Assembly (NCBI GenBank): GCA_963666735.1
Contig: OY762926.1
Coordinates: forward strand, 1,728,001-1,792,000
Direction: 5' to 3'
Source: Gemmatimonadota bacterium
Lineage (GTDB): Bacteria; Gemmatimonadota; Gemmatimonadetes; Palauibacterales; Palauibacteraceae
DNA length: 64,000 nt
Shown here: positions 29,449 to 31,302 of the stretch, one piece after another
How positions within the stretch are numbered: the first letter of the stretch is position 1
Layout: every line of letters begins with the position of its first letter
Translations under genes and position numbers: made by a program
Notes under the pieces: generated by a model
Told to the model about the DNA's origin: nothing
Databases searched by the model: none
The model's input: the letters and a program-made list of their open reading frames with translations, nothing else

Positions 29449-29490
29449 GCTGCCGGGGCAGTCAGCCGCCAGGGCAGCCGAGGCGCCAGA

Positions 29491-29506
29491 CGTTCCCGCG
29501 GGAACG
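29491..29506. repeat. 16-bp palindrome, copy 1
   Basis: CGTTCCCGCGGGAACG. Confidence 0.95.
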
Positions 29507-29711
29507 CGTGACCTGCCTCTCCATCCAGCCGGACGCGGTCCTGCGAGTCTTCGATGATACTCCGTTGAGACCTGACCGAATACTAACCGAAGAACGGATG
29601 GAGTCGGCGCGCGTCTTCGCTTCCGGCGGTGCGCGTGCCGGTGCCTGGCTCGCGACGCGTTGCTCTCGGTCACCGCTTGCTCGCGATCACCCTGGACTTC
29701 GGAGATAGGCC

Positions 29712-31244
29712 ATGTTCCACGACACGCCTCGGGGCGGCGACGCCCCGAAAGGTGACGGCCCGGGCGGCAACGGCCGCAGCCCCGCGACTCGGCTGGGCGT
29801 CCAGCCTCCCGTCGATCCCCTCGGCGATGAAATCGCCCACCTCTGCGCTCATCTGGACGCCAGTCAGTACCGGCTTCTCACGCTGCTCCAGCGCTTCGAC
29901 GCGGCGGAGGGCTGGAGCGGGTGGATCTCCTGCGCGCACTGGCTGTCCTGGCGCACGGGGATGACGACCGGCACGGCGCGCGAACGGGTCAGGGTCGCCC
30001 GGCGTCTCGCCGTTCTGCCGCTCACTTCCGCCGAAATGGAGAAGGGACGCCTATCCTGGTCCAAGGTCCGGGCTCTGACTCGGATCGCCGCGGAGGAGAA
30101 CGAGGAGCGTCTGGTCGAGTTCGCCCTGCACCACACGGCGAGCCAGGTCGAACGTTTCGTCCGCGCGTGGCGTTCGGCCGAGGCGGCCGCGGACGCGTGG
30201 GATGACCACTCCGAGATCGCGACCCGCCGCTCCCTGAGCGTACAGGTGTCGGAAGACGGCATGTATCGCGTGCGGGGCTGCCTGACGCCTGAGGTGGGCG
30301 CCCTTCTCATGCGGGCGCTGGAGGCGGCGGGGGACGAATTGTACCGAGCGGAACGCGCCGCCGAGCGAGAGGCCGAACGGGCGGAGGGGACGACCGCCGC
30401 CGAGGAACCGGCCGGCGCCGGGGAGGGTGAGCGCGAACGGGGCGCGCCCTGGGAGCCGAAACCTCTGAGACTGCCGCGTACGCCGGGGCAGCGGCACCAC
30501 GATGCGCTCCAGGCGTGGATCGAGGACCGGACGCAGGCGAAGGTCCAACTCGTCGTCCATACGGTGGCCGGCGCCCCCGACATCGTGAGCACGGAGGAGT
30601 CTTCACACGTTCCCGCGGGAACGTCGCGGCGCCTCTCCTGCGATGCCGAGGCGGTACGGGTCACGCGCGGAGCGGACGGCTCCGTGCTGGACGTGGGCCG
30701 TCGTCGCAGGACAGTGAACTGGCACCTCCGCAAGGCGCTCGAGGTCCGTGACGGCGGCTGCCGCTTTCCGGGCTGCGGATCGCGCTACACGCAGGCGCAC
30801 CATGCGGTTCCGTGGGCGGACGGGGGAGAAACCGCGCTGCACAATCTCATCCTGCTCTGCCGATTCCATCACCGGATGGTGCACGAGGGCGGCTGGCGTG
30901 TGGAGATGCCGCAGCCGGAGACCGACGCGGCAGGCGAGGCAGCCGTGGCCGGGGCGAACGGCGCCTCGGGGGCGGCGCACTTCAAGGATCCGGAGGGGAC
31001 CGTGGTTCCGGCTGTCGCACCGCTGTGCGAGGATGTGGCGGCGCCGAAGACGCCCGATGCGGGGCTCGCCGGCTGGCACGGGCAGCCGGGGATCGATCCC
31101 TGGACGGGGGCCGGCCGGTGGGAGGGGGACCGGCTGGACATGGACTGGGCGCTCTGGGTCCTCTGGGGTCAGTATGGAGACACCGGCACGCCCGGCACGC
31201 CCGGTACGCCTGAGGCACGGGGCGAAGCGCCCCGCGCCGCCTGA
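29712..31244 (+). CDS. DUF222 (Rv1128c/REP13E12-like) protein with C-terminal HNH endonuclease
   Basis: SCAHWLSWRTG, GRLSWSKVRALTR, SRRLSCDA, RDGGCRFPGC...AHHAVPWADGGET..HNLILLCRFHH; GGAG RBS. Confidence 0.92.
   Translation: MFHDTPRGGDAPKGDGPGGNGRSPATRLGVQPPVDPLGDEIAHLCAHLDASQYRLLTLLQRFDAAEGWSGWISCAHWLSWRTGMTTGTARERVRVARRLAVLPLTSAEMEKGRLSWSKVRALTRIAAEENEERLVEFALHHTASQVERFVRAWRSAEAAADAWDDHSEIATRRSLSVQVSEDGMYRVRGCLTPEVGALLMRALEAAGDELYRAERAAEREAERAEGTTAAEEPAGAGEGERERGAPWEPKPLRLPRTPGQRHHDALQAWIEDRTQAKVQLVVHTVAGAPDIVSTEESSHVPAGTSRRLSCDAEAVRVTRGADGSVLDVGRRRRTVNWHLRKALEVRDGGCRFPGCGSRYTQAHHAVPWADGGETALHNLILLCRFHHRMVHEGGWRVEMPQPETDAAGEAAVAGANGASGAAHFKDPEGTVVPAVAPLCEDVAAPKTPDAGLAGWHGQPGIDPWTGAGRWEGDRLDMDWALWVLWGQYGDTGTPGTPGTPEARGEAPRAA
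30607..30624. repeat. Palindrome copy 2 (18 bp), inside the DUF222-HNH gene
   Basis: ACGTTCCCGCGGGAACGT, encodes HVPAGTS. Confidence 0.95.
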
Positions 31245-31256
31245 GCCCTCCGCTCA

Positions 31257-31272
31257 CGTTTCCGCGGGAACG
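31257..31272. repeat. Palindrome copy 3 (one mismatch), 12 bp after the stop codon
   Basis: CGTTTCCGCGGGAACG. Confidence 0.92.
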
Positions 31273-31302
31273 CGAACCGCCGACGCTCGCCGGGGAAACC
31301 CC

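Follow-up and report, generated by a model that had tools for sequence, protein, structure and literature searches.

In RAYT/REP (TnpA-REP) systems a nuclease gene is flanked by palindromes, and the same variant is dispersed in the same genome, mostly at extragenic positions. The genes of free-standing HNH homing endonucleases destroy or lack their target. Closer in protein content, HNH genes of the 13E12 family are placed under LexA control in the available part of one report (PMC4181829), and the 13E12/DUF222 family is described as being without defined function in the accessible text of a 2026 preprint (PMC13061034). For palindrome readers of the ParB type, the available portion of one study gives parS and NBS as differing at positions 1 and 6 of the half-site and four residues as setting parS versus NBS specificity (PMC7383237). 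The literature searched here, which left subscription journals mostly uncovered and in which the term DUF222 also catches DUF2220, yielded no published ParB-like domain or cognate palindrome for REP13E12/DUF222 and no paper on the pairing of a DUF222-HNH gene with a palindrome.

The window analyzed here is a stretch of 64,000 nucleotides from a Gemmatimonadota genome of 3.98 Mb (G000); the names of homologues point to Candidatus Palauibacter. A gene of 510 codons (29712..31244, + strand) was found to encode PF02720 (DUF222, E 6e-22) followed by an HNH nuclease domain (E 2e-6; residues 350-391, 30759..30884, + strand), the domain order of 13E12-like DUF222-HNH proteins. The eight Cys/His/Asn positions checked in the HNH domain were intact in 110 of 115 homologues; no recombinase domain was detected by domain search, and NCBIfam returned no family for the protein. 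Domain matches confirmed that the gene lies between convergent neighbors, here context only: namZ (27529..29448, + strand; longest ORF, with the true start likely later) and a DAG-kinase/YegS-like gene (31303..32229, - strand). The preliminary description of this locus had reported a 16-bp palindrome that both brackets the gene and recurs within it, and all three copies were recovered: CGTTCCCGCGGGAACG is exact upstream (29491..29506) and in frame (30608..30623) and has one mismatch downstream (31257..31272), with no strand assigned to any copy. The outer copies extend to the 19-nt direct repeat described (29490-29508 and 31256-31274, 95% alike), and the middle copy supplies the VPAGT codons ahead of SRRLSCDA. 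A fourth exact palindrome, beyond these three, stands alone at 45418..45433 (no strand) among the dispersed sites. Between the upstream palindrome and the gene are a conserved -35-like hexamer, TTGAGA (29565..29570, + strand), and a direct repeat, CCGAA-N6-CCGAA (29576..29591, + strand), predicted to be a LexA (SOS) operator; a simple scan for sigma-70 promoters found none upstream of the gene. Within namZ, an 18-bp tandem repeat (29016-29087; DAVGAT-type linker) varies between runs.

Counting the palindrome genome-wide, a check that the preliminary description had proposed, gave 51 exact, 15 one-mismatch and 7 two-mismatch copies, against 0.013 exact copies expected by an order-4 Markov model; no other perfect 16-bp palindrome occurs more than 3 times. 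The window's three palindromes are 3 of the 66 exact and one-mismatch copies, and a second DUF222-HNH paralogue also carries the word upstream and in frame. By home-made gene calls, 49 of the 66 sites are intergenic and 17 fall in called coding regions, the latter including the two DUF222 genes and an in-frame, palindrome-bearing insert in the PHP domain of an error-prone DnaE polymerase (L253, G000 3579929) that is absent from three relatives. Convergent spacers were over-represented at sites (17/49 versus 318/2,118, p 4e-4). Sites clustered weakly around both DUF222 genes (18/61 within 100 kb versus 5.9, p 0.016-0.04, three widths tried), and not significantly at 50 kb. The host has a separate, canonical, single parS beside parAB and dnaA at 2.70 Mb with 0/61 sites within 50 kb of this parS/oriC region, which rules out that the palindrome is the host parS. 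Sites were also scarce near the inferred terminus (3/61 within 400 kb), where nucleoid-occlusion sites are likewise scarce. As separate observations, dnaA matches lie in two frames (L002-L003, G000 2694868-2696213), so that dnaA appears frameshifted in this assembly; and a hydantoinase linker holds another in-frame insert bearing the palindrome (L248, G000 1684873), at which a relative, G017, has a 63-bp site-anchored duplication.

The in-frame copy was examined for selection on the DNA word by comparing homologues from Gemmatimonadota, Acidobacteriota, Methylomirabilota, Gammaproteobacteria and others. From 130 loci, 118 distinct proteins of at least 280 bits were obtained, and 115 remained after 3 were lost to alignment gaps; the loci came from 80 stretches, the best among 587, and the set is accordingly dominated by near relatives. 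The word was found to be palindromic across phyla: its 14-bp core is a perfect palindrome in 79/115 homologues and within one pair of perfect in 107/115, with two or more broken pairs in the remaining eight, while none of the control 14-mers at four neighboring offsets came within one pair. The perfect cores comprise four variants, GTTCCCGCGGGAAC (27 homologues), GTTTCAGCTGAAAC (24), GTTTCCGCGGAAAC (22) and GTCTCCGCGGAGAC (6), three of which encode the same VSAET, so that the paired changes between them are synonymous. The VSAET reading named in the preliminary description is real and accounts for 62/115 homologues; the palindrome is perfect in 52 of these 62 against 4.9 expected from each gene's codon usage. 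Together with the paired variant switches, of which several were placed on a homologue tree built without the motif columns, this supports the earlier proposal of selection on the DNA itself. A position-specific preference was seen in the flanks of the sites, where the 8 outer positions beyond the core gave no sign of covariation between the arms, a pattern expected for duplex binding; a hairpin function was rejected on the same lack of covariation. One homologue (L025, in G027) encodes VSRES at the palindrome position, which is canonical parS with one mismatch.

The gene's variant and the genome's word were next compared across genomes, and the pairing anticipated earlier was supported both among 36 genomes of the genus and in distant genomes. 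The window's variant occurs at 14-79 copies in 24 of the 36, at 2-3 copies in 3 and not at all in 9; in 25 genomes outside the genus it has one copy. Of the 24 site-rich genomes, 17 hold a close gene, 2 hold fragments, 1 holds a distant gene with a hybrid site, 1 holds a broken remnant, and 3 hold nothing; these last three, one of them in a single contig, keep 25-39 sites though no gene was found. The TCAG variant was detected in 7/36 genus genomes, all with a distant DUF222-HNH subfamily, and 6 of the 36 have neither a gene nor the window's or TCAG words. The CTCC variant, absent from G000, occurs at 2-16 copies in 4 genomes, which were selected because they carry genes of this type. Of the distant genomes, 50 in number, 13 have a perfect TCAG gene and contain 1-23 TCAG words and 0-2 TCCG; 14 have a perfect TCCG gene and contain 1-12 TCCG words and 0-1 TCAG. 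Many of these words may sit inside paralogues, so the match there is partly circular. The gene is multi-copy (2 in G000, 7 in G023), and exact sites rise with gene copies (rho 0.78, 23 genomes, copy numbers being hand estimates); likewise, the intact fraction of sites was 0.33-0.66 in 4 gene-less genomes versus 0.57-0.88 in 17 gene-bearing ones, and, since relatives are not independent, p-values of both comparisons overstate. One tRNA-Glu/tRNA-Ala spacer differs in its word between genomes: G031 has TCAG there and both G001 and G004 have CTCC, and in each genome the variant agrees with that of a gene present in it. Head-to-tail palindrome arrays of 14-bp period were seen with no DUF222 gene nearby (L318:365-406, L319:181-208, L320:732-759, L321:730-771, L323:740-767 and L324:669-696); three of the six mix variants, which simple duplication does not explain, and four lie among tRNA genes.

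The best clue to how the palindrome may be read is the modeled N-terminal domain, which the preliminary description did not mention. Residues 44-157 (29841..30182, + strand) are predicted to form a helix-turn-helix domain of the ParB/Noc/KorB type, based on several methods whose scores are moderate and concordant. Searched against 48,161 chains, the model of this domain (pLDDT 96.7) returned ParB, Spo0J and two KorB chains as its top four (Z 8.4, 6.9, 6.5 and 6.0), and the top 12 rows for the full protein model were all ParB/Noc (Z 7.4-9.7, rmsd 2.2-4.3, about 100 residues), though a Z of 6-10 is modest for a helical domain. The top 10 Foldseek matches of the domain were again ParB/Noc, all with E-values above 0.001. 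A profile of the domain run against 3,184 called host proteins placed host ParB first after both DUF222 genes (E 0.0012), and hhalign aligned the two over the recognition helices at a probability of 1.5% and E 0.034. The invariant R120 and S117 align with the conserved Arg and Gly of host ParB, which we take to be the equivalents of Caulobacter R204 and G201. No N-terminal CTPase (ParBc) domain was found: about 43 residues precede the helix-turn-helix, with no Pfam match at E up to 1. Five genomes, some of which have sites and some not, were each found to contain only one HTH_ParB gene. No protein residue cleanly tracked the site variant among the 115 homologues, and two candidate specificity positions (R/K/H at 92, K versus non-K at 118) were rejected as following clades more than site variants. 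On the DNA side, the words of the DUF222 family have the parS base at position 1, either base at position 6 and a swapped center, and the TCAG variant is identical to the core of the host parS apart from the swapped central two bases; the palindrome resembles parS/NBS with an inverted center.

The CCGAA-N6-CCGAA repeat precedes both paralogues of G000 and, in somewhat varied form, those of relatives. Intergenic matches in G000 number 11. Two of them stand before lexA, a PA0069/Rv2578c radical SAM gene has one upstream and so does a UvrC/Cho-like gene; recA has a one-mismatch copy. The repeat is likely to be a LexA box; as found at L239 (G000 3942423-3942459), it was noted as a candidate LexA box for this lineage, for which no description of the repeat in this role was found in the literature searched.

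Gains, losses and copy ends were compared at the namZ-dagK locus and elsewhere. Among 30 dagK loci, 10 are filled, 13 are empty in the same clade and 7 are outgroups without gene or site. The single-palindrome empty site foreseen in the preliminary description exists, as 7 of the 13 gene-less relatives of the site-rich clade have one perfect site, with 2 decayed and 4 lacking any. In these empty alleles the left flank is that of copy 1 and the right flank that of copy 3, and a deletion between the upstream and downstream palindromes matches the single-site allele. On a one-gene tree, filled and empty loci do not form separate groups, and the basal branches are filled (bootstrap not settled), which makes repeated loss likelier than repeated insertion; the empty sites more likely represent repeated deletions than pre-insertion alleles. 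The right-hand palindrome is present in 5/10 filled loci, is clade-specific and is missing from most paralogues. Recent copies were found at unrelated loci, including six in G023 (four pairs measured, 95-97% alike) and three in G003 (97-99% alike). Recent paralogues share DNA that starts 4-51 bp ahead of the upstream palindrome, so that this palindrome marks where the copied unit begins on the left, and that extends to 0-42 bp past the stop; fixed ends, terminal repeats and target duplication were not seen in these copies. A fixed 20-bp leader, as would reflect a set cutting distance, was rejected given the 4-51 bp range, and so were terminal inverted repeats, as some left and right flanks are alike yet the ends are not fixed. 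Seven insertion loci could be mapped to G000, where two of them lie next to a palindrome and the other five have no site (rough p 0.01). One copy, G029c, is a clean case of a recent copy at a pre-existing site: it is 98.7% alike to its namZ copy and now lies between two sites where G000 has one.

Whether sites coincide with rearrangement more generally was examined between G000 and G017. Spacers with sites were not significantly more often broken (10/20 versus 141/329, p 0.64), and any change was seen in 16/20 spacers with sites versus 193/329 without (p 0.06). A rearrangement hot spot was considered, as 11/230 alignment ends lie within 10 bp of a site, but was not upheld in the spacer-matched test. 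No excision joint was found in the contigs of four runs, although contigs drop rare forms, and a mobile 14-bp unit was rejected, with no clean empty allele in 323 contexts examined. In four cases one genome of this pair has one site where the other has two, which flank 63 bp, two single genes and a 21-kb island. The island (L244-L245, G000 188409-209282), at which G017 has one site, carries tyrosine integrases, type I restriction-modification, a GmrSD-like gene, a relaxase and an IS. A small gene, presumably SRPBCC-like (L269-L282), has a palindrome 5-16 bp after its stop in 8/18 loci with differing DNA beyond, in the manner of a cassette. In a single case of a break at the dyad center, a site that is complete in G017 is represented in G000 by exactly its left half, beyond which lie 2.2 kb of different DNA (L247, G000 about 2499003, versus L062). 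In a xanthine-dehydrogenase-family gene, a site originated with at most a small change in length; three genomes retain it, and in the gene-less G011 it is mutated.

What has been observed is a repeat that is spread over the genome and covaries with the gene, together with recent copies at new loci and single-site empty alleles; the ParB-type fold and the LexA operator are predicted. Protein and palindrome are best read as a real cognate pair, with binding likely; lack of enrichment, free synonymous breakage and lack of a single-copy empty site, the three outcomes that the preliminary description had set against the pairing, were none of them observed. Our favored explanation, held with somewhat better than even confidence, is that the palindrome serves as the binding site of the protein's own domain and that the gene is a damage-induced selfish element, which would nick near its sites, copy itself and leave single palindromes behind. 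The parts of this mechanism differ in strength: (i) the protein very probably binds the 16-20-bp site in double-stranded DNA, presumably as a dimer; (ii) there is a good chance that LexA releases the gene after DNA damage; (iii) the possibility that the HNH domain nicks or cuts near bound sites, with repair copying the unit with ragged ends and sometimes beside an existing site, is evenly balanced; and (iv) we lean slightly toward deletion between flanking sites removing the gene and leaving a footprint, with sites being maintained, or turned into the resident variant, for as long as a genome has the protein. Through the upstream and in-frame copies, the protein would be able to bind its own gene and would probably regulate or mobilize it. 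As cutting at every site would break the element's own gene and 50 other loci, cutting is assumed to be rare, single-stranded or conditional, and we give nicking-driven spread of the gene about even odds.

Binding might also operate without mobility, if a domesticated SOS-induced regulator or repair nuclease docks at sites kept by selection and the duplications and site-to-site deletions are passive homology events. The LexA-type box, the xanthine-dehydrogenase-family site mutated in the gene-less G011, the lack of breakpoint enrichment and the scarcity of sites near the terminus fit such a role; the patchy presence of the gene with its repeated loss from namZ-dagK, the bursts of recent copies and the preference of sites for convergent spacers, where nothing is regulated, do not, and we consider it rather unlikely. 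The preliminary description had instead suggested a defined attL/attR-type unit, and a protein that recombines palindromes, moving itself and one-gene cassettes in integron-like fashion, would account for the four one-site versus two-site cases, the position of the site after the SRPBCC-like gene and the single-site empty alleles. This part of the description did not hold: the protein has no recombinase domain, the ends are ragged, half of the filled loci and most paralogues lack the right-hand site, the empty sites look like deletions, breaks were not enriched in matched spacers, no excision joint was found in the contigs, and direct repeats of 16-23 bp can delete passively. A precise att system is thus unlikely, and recombination by the protein in general very much so.

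A slighter chance is left for the word belonging to a host factor (a secondary site of ParB or another DNA-binding protein) and merely being carried by the gene. Sites do persist in gene-less genomes, and one homologue has a near-canonical parS in frame; against this, the host parS lies apart from all sites, the single HTH_ParB gene is present whether or not a genome has sites, and, inside a single genus, a different variant of the gene goes with a different word. The earlier comparison with RAYT/REP pairs is apt as an analogy and no further, with no arm covariation beyond the core and an HNH nuclease. Hardly probable, accordingly, is either a REP/RAYT-like hairpin element or a 14-bp unit inserted by the protein at RCGY targets: the extragenic, convergent-spacer bias and the variant-mixing arrays away from DUF222 genes would suit it, but the word is a loopless perfect palindrome with position-specific flank preference, no context yielded a clean 14-bp empty allele, and the nuclease is HNH rather than HUH.

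With a predicted binding domain and a named 16-bp site, the function of DUF222/13E12 becomes testable, in a family of which 1,762 clusters at 50% identity reach E 1e-30 against the window protein. If the favored explanation is true, it would (i) add a nuclease branch to the ParB/Noc/KorB family; (ii) provide four palindromes as natural specificity variants for work on protein-DNA recognition; (iii) account for the 16-bp palindrome that is the most over-represented in these sponge-associated Gemmatimonadota genomes; and (iv) offer a testable mechanism for a large unexplained gene family. We propose only tentatively that DUF222-HNH could be a novel class of mobile element, whose ParB-derived domain would steer an HNH nuclease to an in-frame, parS-like palindrome, with damage-induced self-copying, palindrome writing or conversion and single-gene shuffling at junctions; this is possible, though doubtful.

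When compared with the known systems, the window gene is like RAYT/REP in being flanked by palindromes whose variant is dispersed extragenically (49/66 intergenic); it differs in having HNH plus a helix-turn-helix in place of HUH (Y1), no loop or guide tetranucleotide, a site inside the coding sequence, and 50-80 copies rather than hundreds. Homing endonucleases share the HNH catalytic domain and spread with ragged borders into intergenic spacers, but the DUF222-HNH gene moves to non-allelic loci and, provided that the palindrome is its target, carries intact sites before and inside itself. Insertion sequences, integron attC cassettes and Xer-dif modules resemble the system in having recent copies at unrelated loci and single genes bracketed by sites; the gene differs from them by the lack of a transposase or tyrosine recombinase domain, fixed ends and visible target duplication. 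REP13E12 with DUF222 (PF02720) and HNH has the same domain content, multi-copy occurrence and reported LexA control, the last as given in the available part of the source (PMC4181829), its actinobacterial members having been left out of the homologue comparison made here. ParB-parS, Noc-NBS and KorB-OB share the fold predicted for residues 44-157 and, in the portion of the study available, a 16-bp palindrome of the same build (PMC7383237); the DUF222-HNH protein, in contrast, has no CTPase domain, no ParA partner and no sites at oriC, and is fused to an HNH nuclease, with its site in frame in its own gene, in multiple mobile copies. By analogy, the best reading is that the DUF222-HNH gene and its palindrome would operate as a RAYT/REP or homing system might if it were assembled from a reader of the ParB type and a nuclease of the HNH type, yet fail the defining tests of each.
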